64,000 bases of DNA from Deltaproteobacteria bacterium (lineage in GTDB: Bacteria; Desulfobacterota; GWC2-55-46). Location of the stretch: the NCBI GenBank assembly GCA_016234935.1, contig JACRNL010000001.1, forward strand, positions 200,679-264,678. Reading direction: 5' to 3'. This document shows, piece by piece, positions 4,168-59,898 of this stretch. The translations under genes and the position numbers were made by a program. Each line of letters opens with the position of its first letter. The first letter of the stretch is position 1. The notes under the pieces are model-generated. The model had not been told where the DNA came from. It was given only the letters and a program-made list of their open reading frames with translations, and did no database searches.

Positions 4168-4260
4168 ACCTGATTTTGTTTATCGGTTAAAAAATCGGCG
4201 GTTTATATATTGTCATTCCCGCTTAAGGACTGCTGGAATGACAACATAATAAAATCCCAT

Positions 4261-5040
4261 TCACTCGCCCGCCGCTTTCATCAGATACCACCTTATCAAC
4301 TCATCGCCGTAGAACAGATGAAGAAACGCGCCGAAAGCCAGAAACGGACCGAACGGCAGGGCGTATTTACTGTTCTTTCCGGTTATGAGCATAACCGCCG
4401 CGCCGATGACCGCGCCGATAAAAGACCCTGTAAGGACTGTGACGATTACAGCCCTCCAGCCAAGGAACGCGCCGATCATGGCAAGGAGTTTTATATCCCC
4501 TCCGCCCATGCCCTCCCTGCCCGTCATGTAATAATAGGCCGCCGCAACCGCAAGGAGAAAACCACCGCCAACGGCCATGCCGATAAGAGAGCTTGCCACG
4601 CCCGGAGCAACCATGAAAAAAGACAGTATGACGCCAAGGATAATTCCCGGAATACTTATTACGTCCGGTATCATCTTCAGCCTCAAGTCAATAAACGTTA
4701 TTACAATAAGCGCGGCGGAAAAGACAAACATGGCAAACAGCTCGCGCGACAGGCCGAACTTAACAAACAGGGCAACCGCGATAACCCCTGTGAGCGCCTC
4801 GACAAAAGGATACTGCACAGAAAGTTTGACCTTGCAAAACGCGCACCTGCCGCCGAGGAATATATAGCCGAATATGGGTATGTTGTAGTAAAACGGCACA
4901 AGCCTGCCGCACCCCTGGCACCTCGACGGCGGCGAGACAATAGAAATGCCCTCAGGTATGCGGTATATGCACACATTCAGAAAACTCCCCACAACCGCTC
5001 CAAAGAGAAACGGGATTATGTATATTATCCGGTCGATCAA
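4261..5040 (-). CDS. pilD: Prepilin leader peptidase / N-methyltransferase (A24 family)
   Basis: N-terminus GSFLNVCIYRIP and a CQGCGRL zinc tetracysteine motif. Multi-pass membrane protein, about 259 aa. Confidence 0.85.
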   Translation of the reverse strand: MIDRIIYIIPFLFGAVVGSFLNVCIYRIPEGISIVSPPSRCQGCGRLVPFYYNIPIFGYIFLGGRCAFCKVKLSVQYPFVEALTGVIAVALFVKFGLSRELFAMFVFSAALIVITFIDLRLKMIPDVISIPGIILGVILSFFMVAPGVASSLIGMAVGGGFLLAVAAAYYYMTGREGMGGGDIKLLAMIGAFLGWRAVIVTVLTGSFIGAVIGAAVMLITGKNSKYALPFGPFLAFGAFLHLFYGDELIRWYLMKAAGE

Positions 5041-5359
5041 AAAAACCCCTTAAATCTTCCCCCCCTTACATTCGCTCCCCCCTTTGGAAAAGGGGGCTAA
5101 GGGGGTCAAGCCCCTTCAAGGGGATTTTATAATGGTGCATCTCACCGCATTCCTGCAAACTCCGGCGCCCTTTCAAATCCTCCCTGCCCTTGTATGTTAG
5201 ACTGTGCCATATTGCGTAATTTTTAAATCCTTTTTTCTCCTCTCCCCTCGCGGGAGAGGGTCGGGTGAGGGGGCCGAGCCCCTTCAAGGGGCAACTTTCA
5301 CCCCCACCCTGCCCTCCCCCATCAAGGGGGAGGAGATAAGGAAGTGGTCATCAACCTGC

Positions 5360-5571: not shown

Positions 5572-6798
5572 CTACGTCCTGTATGCCGAATTTATCTTCA
5601 CATACTCGTAGGTAAGGTCGGTTGTCCAGAATCTCCACGCGGCCTTACCTATGCCGAGGTTGACGGTCATGTTGACCTCTTTTTCTTTCATGACCTTGGC
5701 CGCCTCTTTTTCCTTGCCTGTGTCAAGGCCGCGGCGGGCGACGGGCACGCCGTTAAACGTTATGTCAACCCTGTCTTCCTTCATCCGTATGCCAGCCCTT
5801 CCGAGGGCGGCGATTATCCTGCCACAATTCGGGTCTGCGCCGAAAAAGGCGGTCTTGACGAGCATGGAGGTCGCGATGGTCTTTGCGGCTTTTTTAGCGT
5901 CGCTTATTGTGGCCGCGCCTTTTATGTCTATCTCGATGAACCGCGTGGCGCCCTCGCCGTCTTTCACTATCAGATGGGCAAGCTTTAAAGCGACCTCGCT
6001 TAACATTTTACAAAAGACCTTGTAATCGGCTGTTCCTGATTTTATCTCACGCCCCTTGGCTGCGCCGTTGGCAAAAATCAAAACCGTGTCATTCGTGGAT
6101 GTGTCGTTGTCAACGGCGATGGAATTAAAGGACTTGTCAACGGCTTCCTTCAAGGCCTTTCTCAAGGCCGGATGCTTTATATTCGCGTCCGTCATGATGA
6201 ACGAAAGCATCGTGGCCATGTCCGGGCATATCATCCCAGCGCCTTTGGCGATGCCCGCGACGGTGACGATCTTCCCGCCGATGCGCCCTCTGGCCGTCGC
6301 GGTCTTTTGAAATGCGTCCGTGGTCATTATCGCGCGGGCCGCGTCCGTCAGGCCCAGGCTGCTGAGACCGCGTATAAGCCCCGGCGCTCCGGCCTCTATC
6401 TTTTCAATGGCGGGCATGACGCCGATAACGCCTGTGGAGGCAACGAGTATCTCGCCGCTTTTCAGCCCCAGTCCCTTTTCAATTGCCGAGGCCATGCGGA
6501 GCGCGCTCAAAAACCCGGCCCTGCCCGCGCTTACGTTGGCGTTGCCGCTGTTCACGATAACGCCGCGTGACACGCCCTTTTTCACCCGCTTGATATCAAG
6601 AAGCACGGGAGCGGCCTTGACCTTGTTTTTAGTGAACACCCCGGCGACCGCGGCTTTTGTATCGCTGATGATAAGCGCAAGGTCCAATGCCCCCTGAGGG
6701 GGTTCAACCCCTGTCTTTTTCAGCCCGCAAGCCACCCCGGCGGCCCTGAAACCGGGAACCATCAAATGATGCCTGTTTTTAGCGGTTTTTATCGGCAT
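5572..6798 (-). CDS. argJ: Bifunctional glutamate N-acetyltransferase / amino-acid acetyltransferase ArgJ
   Basis: MPIKTAKN...AAGVACGLKK...ATMLSFIMTDA...YVKINSAYRT, the ArgJ family with the self-cleavage region ATML. Start placed at the internal ATG. The 45-codon upstream extension in the track is repeat-derived. It contains an in-frame VEPPQG insertion. Confidence 0.85.
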   Translation of the reverse strand: MPIKTAKNRHHLMVPGFRAAGVACGLKKTGVEPPQGALDLALIISDTKAAVAGVFTKNKVKAAPVLLDIKRVKKGVSRGVIVNSGNANVSAGRAGFLSALRMASAIEKGLGLKSGEILVASTGVIGVMPAIEKIEAGAPGLIRGLSSLGLTDAARAIMTTDAFQKTATARGRIGGKIVTVAGIAKGAGMICPDMATMLSFIMTDANIKHPALRKALKEAVDKSFNSIAVDNDTSTNDTVLIFANGAAKGREIKSGTADYKVFCKMLSEVALKLAHLIVKDGEGATRFIEIDIKGAATISDAKKAAKTIATSMLVKTAFFGADPNCGRIIAALGRAGIRMKEDRVDITFNGVPVARRGLDTGKEKEAAKVMKEKEVNMTVNLGIGKAAWRFWTTDLTYEYVKINSAYRT

Positions 6799-6869
6799 AT
6801 CATCTTCCTGAATGGAATTTACCGGAAAGGAATGGAGATGAATCCTGGGGGAACTTTCTGAAGAATGTT

Positions 6870-6930
6870 CCCCCTGAGAGGGTTCATCCCATTGAAGGGG
6901 CTCAGCCCCTTGAAGGGGTTCAACCCCCAA
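6870..6930. repeat. Compound repeat family A cluster upstream of argJ
   Basis: ccccctgagagggttcatcccattgaaggggctcagccccttgaaggggttcaaccccc. Confidence 0.8.
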
Positions 6931-7065
6931 CATCCCCTCAAAGACTTTAAAATTTTTTAAAGAGAGTCTGAGAGAACGCCTGCGGTGGGCAAAGCCAAAG
7001 GTTGTATTTTGACTTTAGCCGTGCGCGGCGCCTTTTTTTCAAAAAAGCTTCTCTCAAGAATCCGC

Positions 7066-19396: not shown

Positions 19397-19568
19397 ACAA
19401 AAAAACCTCCCTGCTGAAAAGTCAGGTTGCTCAAAACATGTCCCCGCAGGCCTGCCCTCGCGTGTCTAAAGCGGGGGCTTTAAGCGGGGAAGCCCCGGCT
19501 GCCATGCGACGAAGCCTGCCCTCGCAGGCTTTAAGCGGGGGGCAACGACGTAGATGGGGCGCTTGAGG

Positions 19569-20075: not shown

Positions 20076-20104
20076 AAAATAAGAGGCCTGCTCGTCAGTT
20101 TGAC

Positions 20105-20157
20105 ATGTCCCCGCAGGCCTGCCCTCGCGTGTCTAAAGCGGGGGCTTTAAGCGGGGA
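20105..20157. repeat. Repeat family C (GTCCCCGCAGGCCTGCCCTCGCGTGTCTAAAGCGGGGGCTTTAAGCGGGG)
   Basis: Near-identical direct copy at 19438-19490 on the other side of folK. Partial copies at 19513-19541, 32941-32972 and 39187-39231. Confidence 0.8.
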
Positions 20158-20207
20158 TGCGTATGACGTATTTTTAAAAAACCATCATGTTCCTCGAAGG
20201 CAGCCGC

Positions 20208-22311: not shown

Positions 22312-22471
22312 TTAAAGAAAAACCTCCGTAAATGCTTGTAACTCTACTGGTTAAAAGGGATTTTATGGGTGCTCCCACTTCATCTCCCCCTCTCCCTACC
22401 CTCTCCCGCAAGGGGAGAGGAGAAAAAAAGATTAGAAAACACCGCCATCTTTATAAAAGGCGGAAGAAAAA

Positions 22472-25861: not shown

Positions 25862-26900
<1,039 letters not shown>

Positions 26901-27011
26901 GGAGATTAAAAATACCGTGATGCATTGCAGCGGGTCTGCCCCCTGAGGGGGTTCAACCCCCGGCGCTGATGCAAGCGTCACGGCCTTAGCAGGGCGTCAC
27001 ACCCTTCTGGT

Positions 27012-28391
27012 TTACAGTATATACCTTGAAAGGTCTTCGTTCTTCAAGACCTCCTGAAGCCTGCTCCGCACATACTCCCTGTCAATCACGACATCCTTGT
27101 CGGCAATGTCAGGGGCGTTGAAGGATATCTCGTCAAAGACCCTTTCAAGCACGGTGTGAAGCCTTCTGGCGCCGATGTTCTCCATGCGGTCATTGACCAG
27201 CGCGGCCACGGAGGCTATCTCCATCGCCGCGTCGTCCGCGTAGTTTATTGAAATCTTCTCCGTCTCAAGAAGCGCCTTATACTGCTTAAGGAGCGCGTTC
27301 TCCGGCTCCGTGAGTATCCTGACAAAATCCGCCTCGCCAAGGGATGTAAGCTCCACCCTTATCGGGAACCTGCCCTGGAATTCCGGTATCAGGTCTGAAG
27401 GCTTTGCCACGTGGAACGCGCCTGAGGCGATAAAAAGGATGTGGTCGGTCTTCACCATGCCGTACTTCGTATTCACGGTGGAGCCTTCTACTATCGGCAG
27501 CAGGTCCCTCTGCACGCCTTCCCTTGATACGTCCGGCGTAGAGCCTGTCTGGCGTCCGGCTATCTTGTCTATCTCGTCAATAAAAACTATGCCGGAGAGC
27601 TCCACGCGCTCTATGGCGGTCTTCACGACCTTTTCCATGTCGATCAGCTTCTGCGCCTCCTCCTGCGTCAGGAGCTCAAGTGCCTCCCGCGGCTTCACCC
27701 TTTTTCTGCGCGTCTTTTTTGGAAAGAGGTTTGAAAACATGTCCTTGATGCCCGAGTCCACGTCATCCATGCCCGTAGCGGAAAGTATCTCCATGCCGGG
27801 GGGCCTGCTCTCGGTGATCTCTATCTCAACCGTCCTGTCGTCGAGCTTGCCCTCGCGGAGCTGCGCGCGCAGTTTTTCGCGCGTGGCCTTCTGGAGATCC
27901 CTCTCCTTTAAAAGCCGCTCCTGGCCGGATGCCTGAGAATCAGACGCCTGATAAGACGCGGCCGTCACAGGCGGCAGGAGATAATCAAGGAGCCGCTCCT
28001 CGGCCGCGTCTTTGGCCTTCACGAGCACGCCTGCCTTTTCCTCGTCCTTGACCATCTTCACGCCAAGCTCCGTAAGGTCGCGGATGATGCCTTCAACGTC
28101 GCGCCCGACATAGCCGACCTCGGTGAATTTGCTGGCCTCGACCTTAATGAACGGCGCCTCGGCGAGCTTTGCAAGACGCCTTGAAATCTCGGTCTTGCCC
28201 ACGCCGGTGGGGCCTATCATGATGATGTTCTTCGGATATATCTCATCGCGCAGCCCCCCCTTCACCTGCTGGCGCCGCCAGCGGTTACGCAGCGCAATGG
28301 CCACTGCTCTTTTCGCCTCGGCCTGGCCTATGATGTACTTGTCAAGCTCTGAGACTATTTCTCTCGGAGTAAAATTTTTCATGGTTTTCAA
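27012..28391 (-). CDS. hslU: ATP-dependent protease ATPase subunit HslU
   Basis: [16 protein letters not shown] motif, Walker A GPTGVGKT and a C-terminal conserved region. Confidence 0.95.
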
Positions 28392-28452
28392 CCTGCAAGC
28401 CCGTAGTTATTCATTAAATCCTTATGACGCAAGACATTAGCCCCCGCGCCCC

Positions 28453-28992
28453 TTACGCCAGCTCCTCAACCGTTATCTTGTCGTTCGTGTAGATGCATAT
28501 CTCGGCGGCGGTCTTTATGGCCTCCTCGGCTATTGCCCTTGCTTCAAGGCCGGTGTGCTTTAAAAGCATCTTGGCCGCGCTGAGGGCGTATGGCCCGCCG
28601 GAGCCTATGGACGCTATGCCGTCCTCCGGCTCTATCACGTCGCCGCTGCCGGAGATTACAAACATGTGCTCCCTGTCGGCCACTATCAAAAGGGCCTCAA
28701 GCCGCCTCAGTATCTTATCCGTTCTCCAGTCCTTCGCAAGCTCAACCGCCGCCCTCGTTATATTGCCCCTGTAATGCTCAAGCTTGGCCTCGAACTTGTC
28801 AAAGAGCGTCATGGCGTCCGCGGTGGAGCCGGCAAACCCGGCAAGCACGGACGAATCCCGCATGCGCCTGACCTTTACCGCGCCCTTTTTCATGATGGTC
28901 GCGCCGAGCGTAATCTGCCCGTCGCCGGCTATCGCGACCTTGCCATTTCTGCTGACGGCTATGACCGTTGTTCCGTGGAATTCTATGGGCAA
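28453..28992 (-). CDS. hslV: ATP-dependent protease subunit HslV
   Basis: TTVIAV N-terminal Thr nucleophile context and GSGG motif. 179 aa. Confidence 0.95.
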
Positions 28993-29019
28993 TGATGCCT
29001 CCTGCAGCCTGTAACGGCG

Positions 29020-30039
29020 TTATTTCTTTATCCGCGCCTTCGGGTGCGACCTGTCGTATGTTTCCATCAGCGTATCGAGGCTGACCCTGGCGTAACGAGC
29101 GGTGGTGGAGAGCCGCGAATGGCCTAACATCTCCTGAATCGTCCGTAAGTCCACGCCGGCGTCTAAAAGGTGCGTAGCGAATGTGTGCCTGAGGGAATGC
29201 GGCGTCGGCGTCTTGTTTATGCCGCTCTTTCCGGCATACTTCCTCGTGAGCCTTTGCACCATGCGCGGGTAGATGCGTTTACCGCTTTCGAGGGTGTGAC
29301 ACCCTGCGACCGTAAAGAACGGCGTGTCCGGGCCGTATGCCCCCCGGAACTTCAGATACTCCTTTACCGAACGGGCCGCGTGCTCTCCAAGAAAGGCTAT
29401 GCGCTCCTTGCCGCCCTTGCCCAAAACCTTTATCGTGCCGGCGCCGAGGTCAACGTCCTTCATGTCAAGCCCAACAAGCTCGCTGACCCTTATTCCGGAT
29501 GAATAGAGCACCTCAAGGATGGCCAGATCGCGCATTATCGAAAGGGTGTGACTCCCCGCGAGGGATTGCCTCCCCGCAAGGGTCTGAGACCCTGCAAGGG
29601 TATTGTCCTTCTTATTCGCATCCTCTGACGGCCTTCGCGGGGCCTCTATCAAAAAGGCCGCCTCCTCAACGGTCAAGACCGTCGGCAGGAAGGCCTCGAC
29701 CTTGGGCGACGGTACGAACTCGGCCGGATTCGCCTTGAGCGCGCCCTTTTTAACCAAAAACCTGAAAAACGACCTTATAGCGGACAGCTTCCTTGCAACA
29801 GATACCTTCCGGCACCTATCATGGACAGAATAGGCAAAGGCCCTTACAGCGTCTTCGTCAATCAGCGCAGCGTCAACGCCCTTGCAGGGTGTCACACCCT
29901 GTGCGCCCGCGGCAAACCCGGTCTCTTTCAAAAAGAGTTCAAACTGCCTCAGATCCCGCTCATAATTAAGCCGCGTATGAACGGAGGCGTTCCTTTCAAC
30001 CTCAAGATACGTCAAAAAATCCGCTATCAGCTCCAGCAT
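29020..30039 (-). CDS. xerC: Tyrosine recombinase XerC/XerD family, with three in-frame repeat insertions
   Basis: R..H..R..Y catalytic residues (HSLRHTFATHLL, LGHSRLSTTARY). Classic xerC-hslV-hslU synteny. Insertions GVTPCKG, TLAGSQTLAGRQSLAGSHTL and AGCHTLESG are encoded by family-B repeats. Confidence 0.8.
   Translation of the reverse strand: MLELIADFLTYLEVERNASVHTRLNYERDLRQFELFLKETGFAAGAQGVTPCKGVDAALIDEDAVRAFAYSVHDRCRKVSVARKLSAIRSFFRFLVKKGALKANPAEFVPSPKVEAFLPTVLTVEEAAFLIEAPRRPSEDANKKDNTLAGSQTLAGRQSLAGSHTLSIMRDLAILEVLYSSGIRVSELVGLDMKDVDLGAGTIKVLGKGGKERIAFLGEHAARSVKEYLKFRGAYGPDTPFFTVAGCHTLESGKRIYPRMVQRLTRKYAGKSGINKTPTPHSLRHTFATHLLDAGVDLRTIQEMLGHSRLSTTARYARVSLDTLMETYDRSHPKARIKK
29543..29600. 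repeat. Three degenerate 18-bp tandem units of repeat family B inside xerC
   Basis: gggtgtgactccccgcgag / ggattgcctccccgcaag / ggtctgagaccctgcaag translates as TLAGSQ-TLAGRQ-SLAGSH. Confidence 0.8.
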
Positions 30040-30196
30040 ATTTTACCGGTTAAAAAAAGGGAGTGACTCCCTGCGAGGGTATGAAACCCTGCTGCTGATA
30101 ATCCGCTTTTACACGTGCCTTATAACATCAAAAGGTGAAACCTTCAACAGAAAACAGCGCGTTCGGAGCGGTATATAAGACTTCTCCATATGCCTT

Positions 30197-30868
30197 TTAA
30201 CGTATCAACTGCCCTATCCTCTTAAACCGTATCCAGTGATCGTCGTGATCCCACGACCAGTAGATGACAAATGCCCTGCCCTTTACGTCATAAAGGGGCA
30301 CGCTTCCCCAGTAACGGGAGTCAAAGCTCCTGTCGCGGTTATCGCCCATGACGAATATAGACCCCTGGGGCACGGTGTATGGGCCGAAGTTGTCCATCTT
30401 GTCAAAGCCCATGCCGGCGCCGTTCTTGAATACTGAATGCGAATCTTCAATCTGTTTGCCGTTAATGTAGATAACCCTGTGCCTTATCTCGACCGTATCG
30501 CCGGGAAGCCCTATCGCGCGCTTGATGTAGTCCTTGCTCCTGTCGCCTGGAAAGCGGAATACCACGACGTCCCCGCGCTCTACCTTGCCCCACGCGTTGT
30601 AGAGCTTCGTCTCAAGAAAAGGCACCCTGACGCCAAAGACCTCTATCATCGCGGGCGTTGGCACCTGCACGCCGTAAGCGAACTTGCTTACGATGAGATG
30701 GTCGCCGACAAGGAGCGTGTCCTCCATGGATCCCGACGGTATCTTGAAGGCCTGTATCACAAACGCCCTTATTATAAGCGCCAGCACGAGGGCAATTACA
30801 ATTGCCTCGACCGTCTCCCATATCTGTTTTTTCCTGCTTTTCTTTTCTTCGGCCTTTTCAGACGCCAT
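30197..30868 (-). CDS. lepB: Signal peptidase I
   Basis: SGSMEDTL catalytic Ser region and GDNRDRSFDSRYWG box E. N-terminal TM. Confidence 0.9.
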   Translation of the reverse strand: MASEKAEEKKSRKKQIWETVEAIVIALVLALIIRAFVIQAFKIPSGSMEDTLLVGDHLIVSKFAYGVQVPTPAMIEVFGVRVPFLETKLYNAWGKVERGDVVVFRFPGDRSKDYIKRAIGLPGDTVEIRHRVIYINGKQIEDSHSVFKNGAGMGFDKMDNFGPYTVPQGSIFVMGDNRDRSFDSRYWGSVPLYDVKGRAFVIYWSWDHDDHWIRFKRIGQLIR

Positions 30869-30969
30869 GCCTAACCTTCCTGATGCGGGAGACGCGCTCC
30901 CATCGCAGGGTGAAACACCCTTTTATTGTTTATCCGTCGCAGGGCGTCGCGCCCTTTTACCGGCTTCAT

Positions 30970-32766
30970 TCAATTCACCTTAAGCACCGCAAGGAACGCC
31001 TCCTGCGGCAGTTCCACGCGGCCCACCTGCTTCATCCTCTTCTTGCCTTCCTTCTGCTTTTCAAGGAGCTTTCTCTTTCTCGTTATGTCGCCGCCGTAGC
31101 ACTTGGCAGTGACGTTTTTCCTCAGCGCCTTTATCGTCTCCCTGGCGATTATCTTCGCGCCAATGGCAGCCTGGATGATGACCTCGAACATCTGTCTGGG
31201 GATTATCTCCTTCATCTTTTCAGCTAAAACCTTGCCCCTTGCGTACGCGCTCTCGGACGGAACTATCAACGAAAGCGCGTCAACCACCTCGCCGTTTATG
31301 AGGATGTCGAGCTTTATGAGCCTAGACACCCTGAAGTCGAGGTAATCGTAGTCCATCGAGGCATAGCCCTTTGTAAGGGTCTTGAGCTTATCGTAAAAAT
31401 CAAGGACGATTTCATTGAGCGGAAGTTCGTACTCAAGGAGCACCCTTGCCGGGGTCAGATACTTTATCTCGCGCTGTATGCCGCGCTTGTCCTCGCAGAG
31501 CTTTAGTATCGCGCCTAAATACTCCGACGGCATGTGGATAGAGGCAAGGATAAACGGCTCTTCCACCATGCTGACATTCTGAGGCGGAGGAAGTTTCGTA
31601 GGGTTGTCCACCATCAAGACCTCTCCGTCGGTCTTCGTTACCCTGTAAGCGACCGTCGGCGCGGTGGTAATGAGGGACAGGTCATACTCCCTTTCAAGCC
31701 TCTCCTGGATTATTTCCATATGGAACAGGCCGAGGAAGCCGCACCTGAAGCCGAAACCCAGGGCAAGCGACGTCTCAGGCTCAAAGGTAAATGACGAATC
31801 ATTCAGACGCAGCTTTACGACCGCGTCTTTCAAGTCCTCATACTGCGATGAGTCCACCGGGTAAAGCCCGCTGAAGACCATTGATTTGGAAGCCTTGTAA
31901 CCGGCAAGCGCCTCGGCGGCGGGGTTTGCGGCGTCAGTCAGCGTGTCGCCGACGCTCGTATCGCGCACCTCTTTTATTCCGGCTATCACGAAGCCGACCT
32001 CTCCGGGCCCAAGCTCGGCTGTCTCACGCGGATGAGGGGTGAACACGCCGACCTTGTCAACGTCAAAGGTCTTGCCCGTTGCCATGAACTTTATCCTGCT
32101 GCCCCTTTTTATTACTCCGTCAAAGACCCGTATCTGTATGATGACGCCCTGATAGTTGTCATACCAGCTGTCGAAGACAAGCGCCTTCAAGGGCTTGTTC
32201 CCGTCGCCCGCCGGCGGCGGTATCCTCTTTACTATGGCCTCAAGCGTCTCTTTTATGCCCTTGCCTTCCTTGGCGCTCGTCAGCACCGCGTCGGACGCGT
32301 CAAGGCTCAGAAGGTCTTCTATTTCGGCCTTTATGCGCTCCGGGTCCGCCTGCGGCAGGTCTATCTTATTAAGCACAGGCACTATCTCAAGCCCGACGTC
32401 CTGAGCCGTATACAGATGCGCGAGTGTCTGCGCCTCGACTCCTTGAGAAGCGTCGACTATCAAAAGCGCGCCCTCACAGGCGGACAAAGACCTGCTCACC
32501 TCGTAGCTGAAGTCCACGTGGCCGGGCGTGTCAATGAGGTTCAGCACATACATCTTGCCGTCGTCGGCCTTGTAATTGAGCCGCGCCGTCTGCGCCTTGA
32601 TGGTAATGCCCCTCTCCCTTTCGAGGTCCATCTTATCCATGAACTGATCGACCATCTCTCTCTTGGTCACGGTACCAGTGAATTCAAGGAGCCTGTCCGA
32701 GAGCGTGGACTTGCCGTGGTCAATGTGAGCGATAATCGAAAAGTTCCGTATCCTGTCTTTTTCCAT
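30970..32766 (-). CDS. lepA: Elongation factor 4 (LepA)
   Basis: [16 protein letters not shown]1 motif, DTPGHVDF and the LepA C-terminal domain. lepA-lepB synteny. Confidence 0.95.
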
Positions 32767-33017
32767 TTTTTCCTTTTAGCAGGGCTTTCGAGCAGCCCTT
32801 TAAAACCTTCGCAGGGTGTAACACCCTGCCTTCCCGGCGCCAGCCTCGCAAGGCGCATCCGCGCCTGACGATACGAACTGCAATTTATCATTTTATGATA
32901 TAATGTCATGCTTTGTCAAAGCCTGTTTGCCTCCTGCCCTCGCCGTGTGCTTAAAGCGGGGGATAGAATAGCGGCTTGCCTGTGCGCTTACAAACCAATG
33001 CGCAGACGGCCCGGTTC

Positions 33018-33075
33018 AGGGCGCGACACACTGCGACGGTGTGACACCCTGCGAGGGTGCAGCGCCCTGCGAGGT
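33018..33075. repeat. Repeat family B cluster (GCAGGGTGTGACACCCTGCGAGGG units)
   Basis: cagggcgcgacacactgcgacggtgtgacaccctgcgagggtgcagcgccctgcgagg. Related copies at 26990, 29291, 29543-29600, 29881, 30059-30099, 30904-30958, 32809, 33402, 33712, 34233, 34583 and 37172. Confidence 0.85.
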
Positions 33076-33112
33076 TGACATTACGGCGTTATTTTTGGTA
33101 TCTTACTTAGTG

Positions 33113-33376
33113 ATGACATCGAACGATTTGGGACTATTAACGCTTCTTGTATGCGCCGCCTTTGTTTTAAACCTGCCGTTCGGTTACCTCAGGATAAAGA
33201 CAAAGAAGTTCTCGGTCATGTGGTTTCTCTACATCCACCTGCCCATCCCGTTTATCTTCATCCTGCGGAAAGCGGCGGGCTTTAGCTGGAAGGTCATACC
33301 GGTAATAGTCATAGGCGCGGTAATGGGCCAGTACCTGGGCGGAAAGCTCCGCAAAAAAATACCATCGCAATCTTAA
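33113..33376 (+). CDS. Small hypothetical membrane protein
   Basis: Two or three predicted TM helices (LLTLLVCAAFVLNLPFG, VIPVIVIGAVMG). The 24 upstream codons in the track ORF are repeat-derived (TPCEG). Confidence 0.3.
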   Translation: MTSNDLGLLTLLVCAAFVLNLPFGYLRIKTKKFSVMWFLYIHLPIPFIFILRKAAGFSWKVIPVIVIGAVMGQYLGGKLRKKIPSQS

Positions 33377-33426
33377 CCTTCGCCATATCACCGGCTTGCA
33401 GGGCGTCACACCCATTCGGAGAGGCC

Positions 33427-33909
33427 ATGGCAGGAAAAGACCCCTTGAAGGGGATCAGCCCCTTTAAAATAAGCTCCGTCATATCAAAATCCTACGCGCA
33501 TCTCGGCATAGAGGCCAAACTGCGCGAACATCACATCAAAAAAACATGGGCCGAAGCCGTTGGAAACCTCATCGCCGCAAAGAGCTCCCCGTCAAGGCTC
33601 ATAGGCACGACCCTCTACTGCGTCGTGTCGTCCGCGCCGTGGATGTCTGAACTGTCCTATCAAAAACCCGTCATCATAGCGCGGTTGAACGAACTGCTCG
33701 GCAAGGGCGTGACACCCTGCGTGGGCGCCGTCACCGAGATAGTCTTCAAGCCCGGCAAGGTCGCCAGCCGCGCCCCAAAGGCCGCGAAGGCAGCTCATCG
33801 AAAACTTACACATGAAGAAAAAGAAGCCATCGAAGAGACCGTAAAGCCCGTAAAAGACGAAACGCTCAAAGCCCTGATAAAACGTGCAATGGAAAAGGCA
33901 AAGGGTTAG
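33427..33909 (+). CDS. DUF721 / DciA-like protein
   Basis: TLYCVVSSAPWMSELSYQKPVIIARLN matches the DUF721 (DciA) signature. Contains an in-frame GVTPC repeat insertion. Start uncertain. Confidence 0.5.
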   Translation: MAGKDPLKGISPFKISSVISKSYAHLGIEAKLREHHIKKTWAEAVGNLIAAKSSPSRLIGTTLYCVVSSAPWMSELSYQKPVIIARLNELLGKGVTPCVGAVTEIVFKPGKVASRAPKAAKAAHRKLTHEEKEAIEETVKPVKDETLKALIKRAMEKAKG

Positions 33910-34631
33910 CAGCCTGCTATTCCAGCCTCTATAAAAAATACCTTCGTCTTTTTTCCATTTGCCATTTCCTCTCGTAAAATCCGCATTGGCTTAATGCCAA
34001 GCGCATCCATCTCTGAAATCATCTCATCCAGTCTTGCCGATGGAAATACAAAAAACATCCTGCCGCCATTGCCTGCAAGGTGACTGGAAACGGCCAGCAT
34101 GTCTTGAAGCCCTCCCATGACCTCGCTCCGGCCAATTCTTCTTGCCGGATCCGGGCTTTGCCTTCCTGCACCGGCCTTTGCGTATGGAGGGTTACTTATG
34201 ACGATATCAAAGGAGCCTTCCGGATAATCAGCGGACTCGCAGGACGTCACGCCCAAATTTCTGTAATCGCCTGCCACTATTTTTATCCTCGACGACAGAC
34301 CGTTCAGCCGCACATTCCTTTCGGCAAGCGCGGCGCAGCCGTCCACCACCTCGACGCCGGTGATTTCCGTCGCCGTTGTTTTAGCCGCGATAAGAATGGG
34401 CATTACCCCCGTGCCGGCGCCGAGGTCAATAATCTTCGAGTCCTTGCCTATACTTTCAAGGACGAAATTTACGAGAAGGATGGAGTCCTGCGTATATCTG
34501 TTGCCGGATCTTTTCTGGATAAAGGAATACGGGCCGATTGGTTCAATCGTCTCGGTCTCCGGGTCGAAAGCGTCATCCGGCTCGCAGGGTGTCACACCCT
34601 TCAATTTGATGCCCGCGGAGTTCTTTTGCAT
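33906..34631 (-). CDS. SAM-dependent N6-adenine methyltransferase (TrmN6/YfiC-like)
   Basis: DLGAGTGV SAM motif I and DIVISNPPY motif IV. Carries KGVTPCE and GVTSCESADY repeat-encoded insertions. Confidence 0.7.
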   Translation of the reverse strand: MQKNSAGIKLKGVTPCEPDDAFDPETETIEPIGPYSFIQKRSGNRYTQDSILLVNFVLESIGKDSKIIDLGAGTGVMPILIAAKTTATEITGVEVVDGCAALAERNVRLNGLSSRIKIVAGDYRNLGVTSCESADYPEGSFDIVISNPPYAKAGAGRQSPDPARRIGRSEVMGGLQDMLAVSSHLAGNGGRMFFVFPSARLDEMISEMDALGIKPMRILREEMANGKKTKVFFIEAGIAGC

Positions 34632-34741
34632 TCAGTTTGCTTTAGAATGGAGTTTTTTTGCCCGCCTTTTTTCTAAAAAAGGGGTTGAACCCCCTGAGGG
34701 GGCTCAGCCCCTTCAAGCGGGCAAGAAATGAGCTGCAACCG

Positions 34742-36163
<1,422 letters not shown>

Positions 36164-36336
36164 AATTTTAAAACCCTCCGGGATATCTGTAAGTTGAAAA
36201 AATACTTTACGGGGCTGAATTTATTAATTTACTACTCGAAAAAACGGTTGTCAATGGAAAAAGGGAGGAGGATGCTTTCAGTAAAACCCGCATGGCAAGG
36301 CTTTTACCGGGCCTCGCCATTTTTCCCCGAAGTTTA

Positions 36337-36873
36337 TCACAGATACTTCTTTACCGCCTCATCCCACCTGCCCTGCGCTTTCAGGATCAGTTCGACGACT
36401 TCCCTTACCGCCCCTTTTCCGCCGGGCTTCATCGTGATGTAATGCACCCTCTGCTTCACCTCGTCAACCGCATCCGGCACGCAGATGGCGAGGCCGGCCC
36501 TTTTTAGCACGGGAATGTCGACGACGTCGTCACCCATGTAGGCGGTCTCTTCCGTTTTAAACCCTTCTTTTTCCAAGAGGTCGTCATAGGCCTTTGCCTT
36601 CTCAATGGCCCCCTGATAAAGCAGTTCTATGCCGAGGTTTTTGGCCCTGTGCTTTACGACGTCCGATTGCCTCGCGGTTATTATCGCCGCCTTTATCCCC
36701 GCCCTCTGGAGCATTTTTATGCCGTGGCCGTCGCGCACGTTGAAAAACTTCGTCTCCTCGCCCCTGTCGTTGTAGATTACCGAGCCGTCCGTCATCACGC
36801 CGTCAACGTCCATGATGAGAAGTTTTATCGGTTTTATCCGTTTAATCAAATCGCCGCCAAGTTCGATAGCCAC
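36337..36873 (-). CDS. kdsC: 3-deoxy-D-manno-octulosonate 8-phosphate phosphatase (HAD family)
   Basis: LLIMDVDGVMTDG HAD motif I and GDDVVD motif. About 178 aa. Confidence 0.8.
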   Translation of the reverse strand: MAIELGGDLIKRIKPIKLLIMDVDGVMTDGSVIYNDRGEETKFFNVRDGHGIKMLQRAGIKAAIITARQSDVVKHRAKNLGIELLYQGAIEKAKAYDDLLEKEGFKTEETAYMGDDVVDIPVLKRAGLAICVPDAVDEVKQRVHYITMKPGGKGAVREVVELILKAQGRWDEAVKKYL

Positions 36874-36890
36874 GCCTGCCTCCGGTGAAA

Positions 36891-39041
36891 TTATATTGCC
36901 TCAACCCTTACGCTGAAAGAAAACCCGGTGCTGGCAGGCGCGTCCAGATTCACGGGCATGAGAAAGACGAGGCACGCGCCCTGGAATATCTTTTCAAAAC
37001 CGGCCTCTGAAAGAGAGACCGAATAAATAGGGAACCTCCAGAGCCTGACCGGCGTCGAGACTTCTATGGTCACGCAGACGCCTGTGAATTTGTCAATCAG
37101 GCTGACGCCCTCCACGCCGGAAAGCTCTCCGGCGCTCCCAAGGCCGATGCCGGTTCCATCAATGCGCGCCCCCTCGCAGGGTGTCACACCCTTGAAATTA
37201 TAAAGGCACGCCGGACCGTCGCAGCACGGCAGAAGAAGATTTAATTCCACCGCCAGCAGAACCTCTCCGGGCGTATCGTCGCGCGCGTCTACGATGTCGT
37301 TGTCGACGCGGTAGCTCACGGTGAAGCCGTCCGCGCCGAGCGGCCTTATCTCCTTGGCGACAAAGACGCTTACGCCTTTCACGTCCGACCACTTTGAGAG
37401 GGAGAAGCCCTTGCCGTCATCGTCCACAAGGCATTCAAAGCGGCCATACGGGAAGTCCGCAAGCTCCGCATGGGTGTTCGCGCTGAACTCGGCAAACGTC
37501 GTCTCCCTGCCGATTACGTGCTCAACGAACGATCCTCTCCTGCGCGTGTCGAGCGTAAGGAGCTTATCAAGCCCCTTTTCCTTTACCAGCAGAAGGTCAT
37601 GTATGCTTTTAGCCGCCTCGAAGGCGCCGCCTGTCGCTATCTTTTCGAGCTTATGGTGGTAGCCCTCGGGCCATCGCGTGAGGACGTTCGAAAGGTTCAG
37701 CGCCTTTTTCATGTAATCAAACTCATAAAGGCCGCCGCCAATTCCGGGCGAAAAAAATAGGTTAAGTCCCGCTGTCTTTAAAATCACCTCGTCGTTGCCG
37801 TCGGCGTCCATGTCGGTCTTTTCTATGGAATTTCCCCCGCCGCCGCGCGCCTCCGCGACAAGCCGCTCAGCGGTCAAGAGGTTCTCATACACGGCAGTTC
37901 GCAGATGCGGCAGGTAAAGCCCGCCGAACACGCCGTGCCAGTACGCGTCGTTGCACTGTGCCTTATACAGCGCGCGCGTCGCCTCGCCCAGCGTCTTGTC
38001 TCCCGGCTTTAAGGCGCGCGCCTCCCCAAGCTCCATGCTGACCATGAGCATCCTCTTGTGCATCCAGTTGGCCTCAGGGTATTTAGCCATAAAATTCCTC
38101 CAGATGCCGCCCTGAACGAACTGCTTTATGCGCGACCCGTTGTCCCATTGCGCCGCGTCGTCCATAAGCGCGCCGTATGCCCTTGACGACGGCGCAGGCA
38201 GGGCCCACTCACCCATCTCCATGTATGACGTCGTCGGCAGATAGACCCTGCCAAGCGGATCCTCGGCGTCTATCAACCCCGCGAGAGTCACCGGGCGGAG
38301 CCAATCCGCGGACTCTTCTATCTTTTTAAAAAAAGCCTTAAGCCATCCTTCGTCGTAGACCGATTTATGCGTGCCCGGCCACACGCCGAACTTCTCGCCG
38401 TCGTCGCCGTAAATGGCGGCTTTGCCGCGGGTGAGCGTCGTCTTCAAAGACCTTAAATATCCTTCGAGACTGTCAACCGGCTGAAACGGTATCATGTAGC
38501 GCATGGTCTCGCTGCCAGGGAATATCTTGACCGTATTGCCCATATCCTCGGTGATGTAGTAGCCGCCGAGTTCCTCTTTAGGGATGCCGGACCTCACAAA
38601 ATGGTAATCATCAACGAGCAGATACTCGACACCCGCGTTTTTAAGCGTCGTGGGGAGCGTAGGCTCCCAGACCCTCTCGGCAAGCCAGATGCCGCGCGGA
38701 CGCGCGCCGAAAAGCTCCTCTATCCTGTCTGCCATCATCTTTATCTGCCCGATTCTGTCGCATTCAGGGATTACCGAAAGCACCGGCTCGTAGTGCGCGC
38801 CGCCCATTATCTCGACCTGGCGGGCAGATACCATTTCCTTAAGGAGCCCGATGTATTCGGGATGGCTCCGGGCTATCCAGTCAAGGAGAAAACCTGACGT
38901 ATGCAGCGTCAATTTTACCGATGGATATTTTGAAAGCAACTTCAGGAAGGGCCAATAAGCATTCTCATACGCATCTTCAAGGACATGGGGGAAGTTGCCG
39001 ACAGGCTGATGGTTGTGTATGCAGAAAGCGAAATATGTCAT
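36891..39041 (-). CDS. Glycoside hydrolase family 57 protein (alpha-glucan acting)
   Basis: CIHNHQPVGNF GH57 signature at the N-terminus. Large C-terminal extension. One in-frame GVTPCEG insertion. Confidence 0.75.
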   Translation of the reverse strand: MTYFAFCIHNHQPVGNFPHVLEDAYENAYWPFLKLLSKYPSVKLTLHTSGFLLDWIARSHPEYIGLLKEMVSARQVEIMGGAHYEPVLSVIPECDRIGQIKMMADRIEELFGARPRGIWLAERVWEPTLPTTLKNAGVEYLLVDDYHFVRSGIPKEELGGYYITEDMGNTVKIFPGSETMRYMIPFQPVDSLEGYLRSLKTTLTRGKAAIYGDDGEKFGVWPGTHKSVYDEGWLKAFFKKIEESADWLRPVTLAGLIDAEDPLGRVYLPTTSYMEMGEWALPAPSSRAYGALMDDAAQWDNGSRIKQFVQGGIWRNFMAKYPEANWMHKRMLMVSMELGEARALKPGDKTLGEATRALYKAQCNDAYWHGVFGGLYLPHLRTAVYENLLTAERLVAEARGGGGNSIEKTDMDADGNDEVILKTAGLNLFFSPGIGGGLYEFDYMKKALNLSNVLTRWPEGYHHKLEKIATGGAFEAAKSIHDLLLVKEKGLDKLLTLDTRRRGSFVEHVIGRETTFAEFSANTHAELADFPYGRFECLVDDDGKGFSLSKWSDVKGVSVFVAKEIRPLGADGFTVSYRVDNDIVDARDDTPGEVLLAVELNLLLPCCDGPACLYNFKGVTPCEGARIDGTGIGLGSAGELSGVEGVSLIDKFTGVCVTIEVSTPVRLWRFPIYSVSLSEAGFEKIFQGACLVFLMPVNLDAPASTGFSFSVRVEAI

Positions 39042-39069: not shown

Positions 39070-39137
39070 TTGTCATCCCCGAACGTCTCTATCGGGGATC
39101 TGCTTTTAGATTCCCGATTAAAACCTCGGGAATGACA
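39070..39137. repeat. MITE-like hairpin element, family F (TTGTCATCCCCG ... CGGGAATGACAA)
   Basis: 12-bp terminal inverted repeats enclosing two small hairpins. A minimal 35-bp version lies at 4210-4244. Confidence 0.55.
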
Positions 39138-39239
39138 AATGAGAATGAAGACGAAATGTCTCTATCGTAGATTTATCTTGCCCTTGCATGCCTGCCCTCG
39201 CGTGTCTGAAGCGGGGGTTTTTAAGCGGGGGACGGCGCG

Positions 39240-47115: not shown

Positions 47116-47403
47116 TTCCCTTTTCACCTCCCTGTTGACGCCTTCTTTGTGAAAGACGCCTCGTAACGCATCAGTTCCGTATACTTTTCCATTTCAAAAT
47201 CAACAAGCAGCAAACGCCCTGACAATTTGAAGGGGTTCAACCCCTTGAAGGGGCTCAGCCCCCAAACGGCATAAATCATACCATCTCTTAATGCGCAAGC
47301 AAAGAAAAAAACAGTTGCCTTTCTTGAAAGGCCGGATACCCGGCGGCTCACGCCGCAGGCATGACAAACCGGACTATGCAAATGATATCTTCCTTGCCCG
47401 CGC

Positions 47404-48240
47404 TTATTCCAAACGGGTTTTAACGCTTCCCGCGCCGCCTTCGGCGCCATTATTGCCGCCGCACCTTTTAAGCGCGCCCTCAAGGGGTATTATCGAACAG
47501 GCGAGCGTTTCAAAGTTCGACAAAGGACTGACGGCCTCGTCAATTGTAAATACGCCGCTTGCCATGCGTCTCAGGTCAAACAGATGGCCGCCGCATCCGA
47601 GGGCAGCCCCCGCGTCATGGCAGATAGACCTTACGTAAGTCCCCTTGGAACACTTTACGCTGAACTCCACAAACGGCATTGATATGCCCAGTATCTCGAA
47701 GGAGTGTATCTCAATCTCCCGCGCCTCGCGCTCGACTTCAACGCCTTTTCTCGCAAGCGTGTAGAGCGGAACGCCGTGCTTTTTTATCGCCGAATACATC
47801 GGCGGGGTCTGCATCATCTTTCCGGCGAAACCCCTTAAAACTCCTCTTACGTCCGCGTCCGTAAGACTGCCAGTCTCGCCGCGCCTGACTACCTGCCCTT
47901 CTTTATCGTATGTGTCGGTATCCTCGCCGAGCTTGAGCGTTGCGGAGTAGACCTTCACTGCGCCGCCGCCAAGCGAGTCGGCGAACTTTGTCGCGCCGTT
48001 TATGACAAGGGGCAGCACCCCGGTAGCCATAGGGTCGAGCGTGCCAAGATGCCCCACCTTCTTAGCGTCGAGCGTCCTTTTTACCTTCGCCACGACATCG
48101 TGCGACGTCCATCCGGCAGGCTTATCGGCAACCAGCACCCCGCCGAAGAGGAGTTCGGGGGCATCGTCCGCCGAACCTTCGCATAAAGGGCGCGCAAGAG
48201 AGCGTCCGCGGCTCTGTTTTTTTAAAAATCCGCCATTCAT
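47404..48240 (-). CDS. truB: tRNA pseudouridine(55) synthase
   Basis: GVLVADKPAGWTSHDVV and GHLGTLDPMATGVLPL catalytic Asp motif. Confidence 0.9.
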   Translation of the reverse strand: MNGGFLKKQSRGRSLARPLCEGSADDAPELLFGGVLVADKPAGWTSHDVVAKVKRTLDAKKVGHLGTLDPMATGVLPLVINGATKFADSLGGGAVKVYSATLKLGEDTDTYDKEGQVVRRGETGSLTDADVRGVLRGFAGKMMQTPPMYSAIKKHGVPLYTLARKGVEVEREAREIEIHSFEILGISMPFVEFSVKCSKGTYVRSICHDAGAALGCGGHLFDLRRMASGVFTIDEAVSPLSNFETLACSIIPLEGALKRCGGNNGAEGGAGSVKTRLE

Positions 48241-54145: not shown

Positions 54146-54613
54146 TTAAAATTCTATAATGAGATTTGCCTTATCGATATCCGGCAGGTTCAGCCTGAAA
54201 CTTTTTCCGTCAAAGTCTTCTATGAGAAGAACTCCGCCCTCGACTCCCTTTATAACCGCACTGAAGTTGCGCCTGCCGTCTATCGGCGTCTTTGTCCTTA
54301 TCTTCGCCCTCTTGCCGGCGAAGCGGATAAAATCCTTTTCCTTTATAAGAGGCCTGTCAAGCCCTGGGGAGGATACTTCAAGGACATATCTTGCCGCCGG
54401 CATGACTTCTTCTACGTCAAGGATGGTGCCAAACTCCCTGCTGACGCTTGAGCAGTCGTCTATGGTGACGCCGCCGGGCTTGTCTATGAAGATCCTTAAT
54501 ATCTTCCTGCCGTGCTCGCTAACAAACCCGATATCCACGAGCTCCATGCCCAATGATAAAAGGAACGGTTCGGCTATCGCGCGTAATTTGTCTTCCAGAC
54601 CTTCGGCCTTCAA
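54146..54613 (-). CDS. rimP: Ribosome maturation factor RimP
   Basis: [18 protein letters not shown]-terminal signature. First gene of the rimP-nusA-infB operon. Confidence 0.9.
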
Positions 54614-54790
54614 AACGTCTCCAGAAATTCCCCTTGAATGTGTTCAACCCCCTGAGGGGGCTCAGCCCCTTGAAGGGGGTCACCCCCCGCATCGCGGGCT
54701 TGCTGTGCAAAGAAACAACTCTTTGCGCGCTGTCTATGACCGGCTTTTTTCACGTCCGCCGCGTCCTGTCGTAGGCCCGGCCCTTAGAAA

Positions 54791-54813
54791 CAAAAAAGTG
54801 GGCTTCAGCCCAC
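54791..54813 (-). terminator. Intrinsic terminator / attenuator in the leader upstream of rimP-nusA-infB
   Basis: Hairpin gtgggcttcagcccac, followed on the minus strand by TTTTTTG. About 180 nt upstream of the rimP start. No coding gene upstream on that strand. Confidence 0.5.
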
Positions 54814-55093
54814 TTTCTCAGGACTGGGCGCAGGGGTTTTATCCCCGCACGGCCCTGATTAGTCTAAATTTAACACACAAAAAATATTATGGCAAGCGCA
54901 AAATGCGCCTGCCGACGTCAAATATAAGGAAACGGAAGCGGTTTAAAGAATTAACGTTTTTTGGCCGCCTGCGGCGGGGCAAAGCCTAATGGTGCGTCAT
55001 TTAAGACTTTAGCGCGCGCAGCGCCCTTTTTTTTCAAAAAAGGCAAGCGTGCCTCTTGTGCAATTGAAATCTTACGCTATACTTTTCACGACC

Positions 55094-56484: not shown

Positions 56485-56640
56485 AGGCAAGACAGGCAGA
56501 TACTCTCTTCCTTCTGCCCTCGCATGTTCCCCGATAGAAACATTCGAGGGCAGGCTATAGCGGGGGTTGGGGTGGGGGTATCTATAAATCATAACTGATC
56601 GCAACTCTGAAAAAAAGCTCTCCTGTCAATGGGAGGGTAT

Positions 56641-59749: not shown

Positions 59750-59898
59750 GATTGCTGAAAAACCCTACTTTTATACAGGCTGCTCAAAAAGCCCCTGCTA
59801 CTAGGCGACGAGGAACGAAGAATGAGACGTGCTTTTGGGCACGTCGCAATGATGAGCGACGAAGGCAACGACGTAGATGGGGCGTTTTCAGCAGCCTG
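59750..59898. repeat. Composite ~150-bp repeat element, family E copy 2
   Basis: Begins 15 bp upstream of the sthA ATG. Same architecture and orientation as 26751-26900. Contains a plus-strand mini-ORF (MRRAFGHVAMMSDEGNDVDGAFSAACWAA) with an AGGAA Shine-Dalgarno. Confidence 0.7.

Follow-up and report, generated by a model that had tools for sequence, protein, structure and literature searches.

The Locus and the Repeat Unit

We analysed a stretch of 64,000 nucleotides (the window) of contig JACRNL010000001.1 from a Deltaproteobacteria bacterium (assembly GCA_016234935.1), in which a short palindromic repeat, here called family B, is found both between genes and, in frame, inside them. The genes that carry copies were identified with Pfam as those of a XerC-type recombinase, DciA, a small S-adenosylmethionine (SAM) methyltransferase, a GH57 4-alpha-glucanotransferase and a DUF1015 protein; intergenic copies lie next to hslU, lepB, lepA, a small membrane-protein gene and dciA. 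The XerC protein of the window is identical to MBI5887273.1 and the methyltransferase protein to MBI5887278.1. All copies are listed in Table 1.

The original prediction had described a 22-bp core unit. Since tandem copies have a period of 18, the unit is 18 bp long and consists of a 13-nt G/C-clamped hairpin, GGGYGT-G-ACRCCC, with a stem of 5-6 bp and a loop of 3 nt, followed by a 5-nt tag, TGCGA. Tandem Repeats Finder reported this period at 33025. A search of the window with CAGGGTGTCACACCCTG, allowing up to two mismatches, retrieved 9 sites (13 strand-matches); 100 shuffles that preserved dinucleotides gave no hit. When up to three mismatches were allowed, the 18-mer GGGTGTGACACCCTGCGA gave 19 matches, which correspond to 16 distinct units, where 0.05 were expected. 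The perfect 17-nt palindrome occurs once, at 29885-29901, and an Rfam search of the window returned no match. The predicted copies all exist, and their in-frame peptides were confirmed by translation in XerC (GVTPCK; LAGSQT-LAGRQS-LAGSHT; AGCHTLES), DciA, the methyltransferase and GH57; the DUF1015 copy, the degenerate unit near hslU and the degenerate fourth unit of the xerC array had been missed.

Clustering around xerC, lepA and dciA, which had been raised as a question, is real within the window: all 16 units are confined to positions 26,987-37,191, a span of 10.2 kb out of 64 kb. For 14 loci placed uniformly on 64 kb, the probability that all fall in one 10.2-kb span is, by our own arithmetic, <1e-8. 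Eight of the 14 loci (about 10 of 20 units) are intragenic.

The window contains another family, A, consisting of GGGGYTSARCCCC followed by TTSAA or CTSAG, with the same 18-bp architecture. It is scattered from 2.7 to 54.7 kb (40 matches, 0.49 expected), and Tandem Repeats Finder detected its period of 18 at 6880, 11330, 47227 and 54644. The plan common to both families can be written as G3-4 / loop / C3-4 + T-N-S-R-A, 18 bp, and a generic scan of the window for G/C-clamped 13-nt hairpins found 46, compared to 6.9 in shuffles (shuffle maximum 15). Judged by this architecture, families A and B look like sub-families of one kind that differ only in stem and tag sequence, and the earlier view of two independent families is not clearly borne out. 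In-frame family A units are present in many further genes, where they read (V/A)EP(L/P/F)QG or KGLSPLK; family A sites were compared with empty alleles in DciA, DUF1015 and GlcF.

Table 1. Repeat units of families A and B in the window.
Feature	Position	Strand	Reading or context
Intergenic B unit, GGGTGTGACGCCC+TGCTA	26987-27004	-	just downstream of hslU
Degenerate B unit next to the hslU-side copy	26969-86		family A unit adjoins at 26943-60
xerC site 3, B unit	29292..29309	+ (gene on -)	reverse reading AGCHTL(E)
xerC site 2, tandem B array	29544..29615	+	3 clear and 1 degenerate unit; reads NTLAGSQTLAGRQSLAGSHT; inter-domain linker
xerC site 1, B unit	29882..29899	-	reads GVTPCK
lepB-xerC spacer, 2 B units	30059..30094	+	intergenic
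lepA-lepB spacer, 2 B units	30903-20 and 30937-54	-	intergenic
lepA leader, B unit	32809..32826	-	intergenic; downstream of promoter-like site 32919-32890
3 tandem B units	33019..33072	+	intergenic; upstream of small membrane-protein gene
B unit upstream of dciA	33396..33413	-	intergenic; just upstream of the gene
dciA N-terminus, family A unit	33440..33467	+	reads PLKGIS
dciA internal B unit	33705..33722	+	reads GVTPCV
TrmN6-like methyltransferase, decayed B unit	34237..34254	-	reads GVTSCE
Methyltransferase N-terminus, B unit	34582..34599	-	reads GVTPCE
DUF1015 gene, decayed B-like unit	34923..34940	-	reads GVAPRE (KGVAPRE in context)
DUF1015 gene, family A array	35307..35355	-	reads KGSNPSKGLSPLRG; 36-nt insertion
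GH57 4-alpha-glucanotransferase, B unit	37174..37191	-	reads GVTPCE
Histidine kinase (2497-4167), family A	2733, 2836, 3175, 3454, 3805-3840		in frame
argJ, family A	6694		in frame
recN C-terminus, family A	14170		in frame
M16 peptidase, family A	43556		in frame

Coding Copies Are Lineage-Specific Insertions

Filled and empty sites were compared in relatives that are uncultured groundwater Deltaproteobacteria / Thermodesulfobacteriota known from metagenome-assembled genomes (MAGs); their contigs are referred to below by L numbers. The comparative set comprised sisters at 76-88% nucleotide identity and an almost repeat-free outgroup (L033, GCA_023249295.1, syntenic, 12 kb), and it gave some ten pairs of filled and empty sites. 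The relatives keep the gene order argBDFG-hslUV-xerC-lepB-lepA. Five distant syntenic loci (L001-5, 14-21 kb) are, like L033, essentially unit-free and have short intergenic spacers; the lepA-lepB spacer is ~28 nt in repeat-free relatives.

In XerC, the six amino acids of sites 1 and 3 are missing in five relatives (53-56% identity) and in a dozen database homologues, and unrelated linkers occupy site 2 in the same proteins. At the DNA level, xerC was compared with L020 and L021 (83-84% protein identity). Both show a clean gap of 18 nt at site 1. Site 2 contains four units in the window, four in L021 (of different sequence and partly in opposite orientation) and three in L020; site 3 contains one unit in the window, L020 and L006 (JACREU01) and two tandem units in L021. 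The count in the lepB-xerC spacer is two in the window and in L021 and three in L020.

Similar differences were seen further along the locus. The GVTPCE and GVTSCE units of the methyltransferase are both present in L027 and are both clean 18-nt gaps in L028, L030, L031 and L033; L027 has two extra units at positions empty in the window. DciA carries GVTPCV in the window and L028 and has a clean 18-nt gap in L030, L031, L033 and more distant DciA; proteins that are 85-91% identical are without it. The family A peptide PLKGIS is a 6-amino-acid indel, present in L030 and missing in L031 and L033, and the intergenic unit upstream of dciA is common to L031 and L032 and absent from L033. At the GH57 site there are no units in L033, one in the window and four in tandem in L025, and representatives of 50% clusters (40-60% identity) show nothing like GVTPCE there. 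The family A insertion of DUF1015 is found only in the window and is missing in L028, L030, L031 and L033. The window and L028 both carry the decayed B-like unit of this gene, which L030, L031 and L033 lack. At GlcF, the site is empty in the window and filled by two family A units in L025.

Thus, the coding copies are real, lineage-specific insertions, and copy number changes in unit steps. Units have come and gone repeatedly, between genes and within reading frames, the latter in six housekeeping genes. The proposal of an active or recently active process that inserts in frame is supported by these empty sites and by the copy-number differences between sisters. Copies also exist outside the window, at the methyltransferase sites of L027, in GlcF of L025 and in the unrelated contig L023 (47% GC). 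A metagenome scan with GGGYGTGACRCCCTGCRAGGG matched five contigs only, of which three are high-GC and look like chance matches, so that it holds little information on distribution.

We regard it as scarcely credible that the GVTPCEG and AGCHT stretches are ancestral or selected protein motifs, or that they are artefacts of MAG assembly. The sole point for an ancestral motif is that the same peptide recurs in several proteins. In each of the five protein families, clean gaps replace the six residues in homologues at 45-91% identity, and these alignments refute an ancestral origin of the peptides; the host proteins are unrelated, and the DNA unit is equally common between genes. In XerC, the methyltransferase, DciA and GH57 the peptides are 6-amino-acid (18-nt) insertions relative to close and distant homologues alike. 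A separate Logan assembly (L029, SRR12113407) is 100% identical to the window over 2,006 bp, so that the repeats are no assembly artefact; the sources of the sister contigs are Logan, ENA and JGI.

Three orthologous sites that read GGGCGTCACGCCC in the sisters carry three other sequences in the window. Concerted evolution of these sites is a suggestive explanation on which we do not rely, since ordinary divergence with compensatory change also fits.

Insertion Junctions and Target Sites

Nine inserts were each placed against the closest empty allele. The inserted segment was always a whole number of 18-nt units, and the target-site duplications for which a check had been proposed were found at none of the nine sites. 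The best placements include ...aa/GGG...CCC TGCGA/g..., where slashes mark the junctions. Native targets read cttgaa/gcc at the methyltransferase N-terminus (native in L031), ggcaa/gga in DciA, ccccttcaa/aat at the DciA N-terminus, cacag/gga or caaaa/gga in DUF1015, atcaa/tgg at the DUF1015 family A site and cccctgaa/ggc in GlcF. In seven of the nine targets, the insert is preceded by AA (or by AG at one DUF1015 site), which is tag-like. The same preference is seen at the family B loci of the window, where AA precedes the unit in 9 of 15 cases (p=1.5e-4) and A in 13 of 15 (p=2.5e-4) relative to the background before GGG. The targets therefore resemble the unit-unit junction within an array, although these data may equally be taken as 1-9 nt of microhomology at the junctions.

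Gain and Loss of Units

A neighbour-joining tree was built from 1,513 aligned columns without units, taken from the dciA-MTase-DUF1015 region (MTase, methyltransferase), a data set of 1.5 kb with a distant outgroup. Its topology is (L033,(L028,(window,(L030,L031)))), with 90% bootstrap support for the group of the window, L030 and L031. The family B units of DciA and DUF1015, present in the window and L028 and not in L030 and L031, conflict with this tree. A clade of the window and L028 as the cause of the shared units was ruled out, since it appeared in 0 of 500 bootstraps. The conflict would be accounted for by precise 18-nt loss of both units, by independent insertion at identical positions or by local recombination between lineages. 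On these alignments, the case for precise loss or hot-spot reinsertion appears good but not conclusive.

Reading Frames and Tolerance by the Host Proteins

The palindrome had been said to have two open frames and a third that carries TGA; in fact, five of the six frames of the unit are open and one carries TGA. Independent coding sites in forward orientation all use GVTPCx (8/8), and both reverse sites use (L)AGxxT (2/2). The two peptides represent one codon phase on opposite strands, which places the insertion behind the second position of an AAG, CAG or NNG codon. GCDTLR, from another open frame, is used at no coding site. The choice of frame likely results either from selection on the peptide or from the AA/G target lying in Lys codons.

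Genes tolerate the unit because 18 bp amounts to six codons and the phase used is stop-free. In an AlphaFold (AF2) model of XerC with a mean predicted local distance difference test score (pLDDT) of 72, insert sites 1 and 2 coincide with segments of pLDDT<50 (46-52 and 142-160); no insert corresponds to the remaining segments of this kind, 114-119 and 308-324. At site 3 there is a coil segment, where the block-mean pLDDT is about 69-78. By this model, two of the three XerC inserts are predicted to be in low-confidence loops or linkers.

The Hairpin Is Constrained

The alignment comprised 46 units, drawn from both families in the window and at sister loci; part of them had been gathered by a filter that required at least 5 of 6 stem pairs. 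As can be seen from the alignment, the G3/C3 clamp and the tag are conserved, and stem positions 4-6 and 8-10 covary. Stem cells were paired in 92% of cases, compared to at most 65% in slid controls, and double-sided stem changes numbered 43, compared to 18.7 ± 2.7 in shuffles (0/500). Folded as DNA, a single unit gave -5 kcal/mol (z=-2.6), and a family A doublet formed one composite hairpin at -13.3 kcal/mol (z=-2.8). Judged from these comparisons, the hairpin is the constrained feature.

Such constraint could mean that the units are selected DNA or RNA elements, i.e., terminators, mRNA-stabilising hairpins or sites for nucleoid proteins or gyrase, with the coding copies as by-products or themselves selected. 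Apart from the covarying stem, this explanation draws on terminator-like copies with a T-run on the transcribed strand after lepB (30072-30058) and after DUF1015 (34706-34680). In the lepB-xerC spacer, the second of the two units has a T-run behind it on the minus strand and looks like a terminator. Roles of this kind have also been credited to repetitive extragenic palindromic (REP) sequences (PMC3733652). However, exact 18-nt units in reading frames and copy-number differences between sisters are left unexplained, and the intergenic copies at 30907 and 30942 have the T-run on the untranscribed strand. Rfam, as mentioned, contributed no match. Selection at the RNA level was considered and rejected, since on inspection imperfect stems showed no consistent G-U versus C-A bias toward the transcribed strand. 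Overall, we consider a selected function an unlikely origin of the units.

How the Units May Spread

Gain of whole units, expansion and contraction of arrays, target preference, absence of duplication and local clustering of family B are observed; precise loss of units is probable. We read family B as a new REP-like, non-autonomous mobile palindromic micro-element, a reading to which we give an even chance and the catalyst of which we infer. According to this reading, single units would land at new sites, usually after ...AA and before G. Head-to-tail arrays would then expand and contract in 18-bp steps, the changes in size presumably arising by replication slippage, and copies in protein loops or linkers would survive as hexapeptide inserts, GVTPCE or, when reversed, LAGCHT. 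Insertion at new sites and precise loss would most likely be due to a trans-acting HUH transposase that works on single-stranded DNA, of the REP-associated tyrosine transposase (RAYT) or IS200/IS605 type, encoded elsewhere in the genome. The expected single-strand substrate of such an enzyme would be TTGAA/GGGTGTGACACCC TGCGA/, with cleavage after the pentanucleotides. An HUH-type catalyst is preferred because a hairpin is combined with a conserved motif, no duplication is made, the target is end-like and sequence change preserves the hairpin. Insertion beside a motif like the unit's own end would generate head-to-tail arrays.

Several observations weigh against this reading. Among the open reading frames (ORFs) of the window, no transposase, RAYT or reverse transcriptase was detected by Pfam and by reading of the ORFs. 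The tags are not the GTAG or CGTC of known REP super-families, and family B units occur as singlets or direct arrays and not as inverted doublets (REPINs). There is no strand bias of the IS200/IS605 kind in the window, with five loci on the plus strand and nine on the minus strand, and the window lies in one replichore, since its GC skew is uniformly negative. Two of the nine sites (gatct/gcc and acggc/gac) fall outside the AA/G rule, and the junctions show 1-9 nt of microhomology. The flank of xerC site 1 differs from the sisters at 7 of 18 nt, compared to ~12% elsewhere. In addition, a "unit + 6 nt + TGACGCT" arrangement is common to three loci (26973-27007, 29868-29902 and 34568-34602), whose likeness runs 14-17 nt past the unit on the tag side at the same offset. 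These shared flanks hint that some events copied more than one unit, and together with the altered flank of xerC site 1 they lean toward copying from a donor and away from cut-and-paste. Finally, inference about the junctions is limited by an overall difference of 12-25% between filled and empty sequences.

Part of this evidence is what one would expect if the units spread without a dedicated enzyme, with nearby arrays serving as donors for template switching at replication or for copying primed by microhomology (ectopic gene conversion). A hairpin would stall the fork, the nascent ...AA end would pair with the tag of another array, at least one 18-bp unit would be copied, and the nascent strand would return via the following G(GG); hairpin-assisted slippage would produce precise loss and changes in array size. 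Every junction can be written with the microhomology given above, and native targets are half-unit-like: ccccttcaa in dciA, cccctgaag in glcF and ggcttcgatcc in DUF1015. Synonymous changes beside the DUF1015 array make the native GGCTTCGATCC more unit-like. The altered and shared flanks, the confinement of all 16 units to 10.2 kb, as local copying would give, and the missing strand bias and transposase in the window also fit. On the other hand, the L027 site and methyltransferase site 3 have exact single 18-nt units with no more than 1-2 nt of microhomology, family A, which is built alike, extends over >50 kb, and the family B units of contig L023 indicate dispersal beyond the locus. Nor does template switching explain why the tag and G/C clamp are conserved while the stem covaries freely, a pattern that resembles recognition by a protein. 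We consider enzyme-free spread a serious rival, though the less probable explanation.

XerC itself was considered as the catalyst, since family B units are packed most closely within xerC and next to it, and integron-type tyrosine recombinases act on hairpins. This candidate was dropped as unsupported: the gene is an ordinary syntenic xerC-hslVU orthologue that is also present in repeat-free relatives.

The bolder proposition is that a single 18-nt hairpin plus tag is the complete mobile unit, the smallest transposable DNA described, which would excise precisely and reinsert mostly nearby at AA/G. It would call for an HUH enzyme that recognises a single hairpin or for an undescribed mechanism, and would amount to a natural system of in-frame hexapeptide loop insertion that targets essential genes, i.e., xerC, dciA, the tRNA methyltransferase gene, argJ, recN and others. 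We think this improbable, though well short of negligible.

Other Repeats, Gene Calls and Contig Ends

The window contains additional repeats. A third intergenic family of about 58 nt, ACATGTCCCCGCAGGCCTGCCCTCGCGTGTCTAAAGCGGGGGCTTTAAGCGGGG, occupies positions 19436-19493, 20103-20160 and 39176-39233, with related copies at 19514-19541 and 56510-56570, and is also present in L020 and L025. An intergenic MITE-like (miniature inverted-repeat transposable element) element of about 125-140 nt was found at 26760-26900 and 59758-59898 (80% identical); its inverted ends of about 16 nt read CAGGCTGCTCAAAAAG ... CTTTTTCAGCAGCCTG. Palindromic repeats of the CCCTCTCCCGCGAGGGGAGAGG type at 5227-5274 and 22385-22432, and at 544-682 of L023, yield spurious "GEGRVGV" ORFs. 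The GH57-glcF spacer of L025 (~1970-2050) has extra hairpin-like segments of 19 and 28 nt, e.g., CCTCGATAGAAACATTCGAGGGCAGGCT, which are missing at 39084-39115 of the window; similar sequence is found at 56529-56556.

Where longest-ORF calls cross arrays, they are inflated or spurious: 33041-33376 (+), 5572-6933 (-), 47124-47483 (-), 54159-54989 (+) and 4210-5100 (+). The membrane-protein gene probably starts near 33113, judging by the 81-87 amino acids annotated in sisters, and argJ probably starts at an internal MPIKTAKN. Several plus-strand ORFs are antisense to real genes (truB, DHH, rbfA and prepilin peptidase).

Short-read contigs of the lineage tend to end at or next to arrays. L006 starts right after the xerC array, L029 ends inside the family A array at 34676-34716 (window 34707), and the ends of L020 and L021 are similar. 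Thus, the repeats fragment assemblies. Since they break short-read contigs and lengthen ORF calls, they matter for metagenome assembly and annotation.

Should the unit be truly mobile, 18 bp would become the new lower limit of known sizes for mobile repeats of prokaryotes. The filled/empty pairs and the near repeat-free outgroup can be used to test target choice and loss of REP-like elements. In a free-living bacterium, loop inserts of six residues come and go in essential proteins over times comparable to those of species divergence, which bears on protein evolution and on the reading of indels in MAG proteins.

Comparison with Known Systems

Intragenic REPs have been catalogued in Opitutus terrae, Rickettsia conorii (RPE-4/-6) and Thauera (Di Nocera et al. 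2013, PMC3733652); the view that insertion into coding targets had been described in very few lineages is fair, with these documented cases to be added. Like family B units, REPs form short G/C-rich stem-loops, one end of which bears a conserved tag that stays unpaired (PMC3733652). They too are present in many copies, as singlets and clusters, with species-specific sequence; some copies are intragenic and encode extra residues, and some lie just after genes like terminators. Those of Thauera share 5-bp stems and tandem arrays with family B. The differences are that the tags here are TGCGA / TTSAA / CTSAG, outside the defined super-families, that the unit is 18 bp as opposed to 20-40 bp, and that units follow one another strictly head-to-tail at a period of 18. 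Of the window copies, about half are intragenic, whereas REPs are predominantly extragenic, and no RAYT was found in the 64-kb window. We class family B as working like a REP or a Rickettsia palindromic element (RPE) but as standing outside the defined super-families; no catalogued REP is as small (PMC3733652). In the REPIN/RAYT model (Bertels & Rainey 2011, PMC3116915), the mobile form is an inverted doublet that folds into one long hairpin, unlike the singlets and direct arrays of family B; the family A doublet, however, does form a composite hairpin, as given above. REPIN/RAYT and IS200/IS605 systems resemble family B in the combination of a hairpin with an adjacent short conserved motif, the absence of duplication, an end-like target (here at seven of nine sites) and the plausibility of precise loss.

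The "peel-and-paste" transposition of IS200/IS605 elements, which proceeds through single-stranded DNA, makes no target-site duplication, inserts 3' of a short specific target similar to the element's own end and has a lagging-strand orientation bias. Family B loci do not show that bias. MITEs have terminal inverted repeats, a target-site duplication and a length of 70-300 bp, whereas family B is 18 bp long and without duplication.

RPEs are the classic case of in-frame insertion. RPE-1, reportedly described by Ogata et al. in 2000, is said to lie in frame in housekeeping genes and to measure about 100-150 bp, encoding 30-50 amino acids. Like family B, RPEs are tolerated palindromic insertions in housekeeping genes that are lineage-specific among close relatives. 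One unit here is 6 amino acids (18 bp), forms tandem arrays that RPE-1 does not, and belongs to a free-living groundwater deltaproteobacterium, in contrast to an obligate intracellular alphaproteobacterium. Cyanobacterial small dispersed repeats (SDRs), reportedly described by Elhai et al. in 2008, are said to be mobile palindrome-containing sequences of ~20-27 nt, both intragenic and intergenic. To our knowledge they have no known transposase, and we are aware of neither an 18-bp tandem periodicity nor an AA/G junction rule in them. SDRs share with family B a very small size, a palindrome and a position inside and between genes, as judged by empty-site comparison; their sequence and phylum differ.

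Our literature search for the motifs and the phenomenon found no prior description of family B, the motifs matching only unrelated primer and microRNA (miRNA) text. In-frame palindromic repeats are already known as a phenomenon, and family B is a new and unusually small relative of REPs and RPEs.

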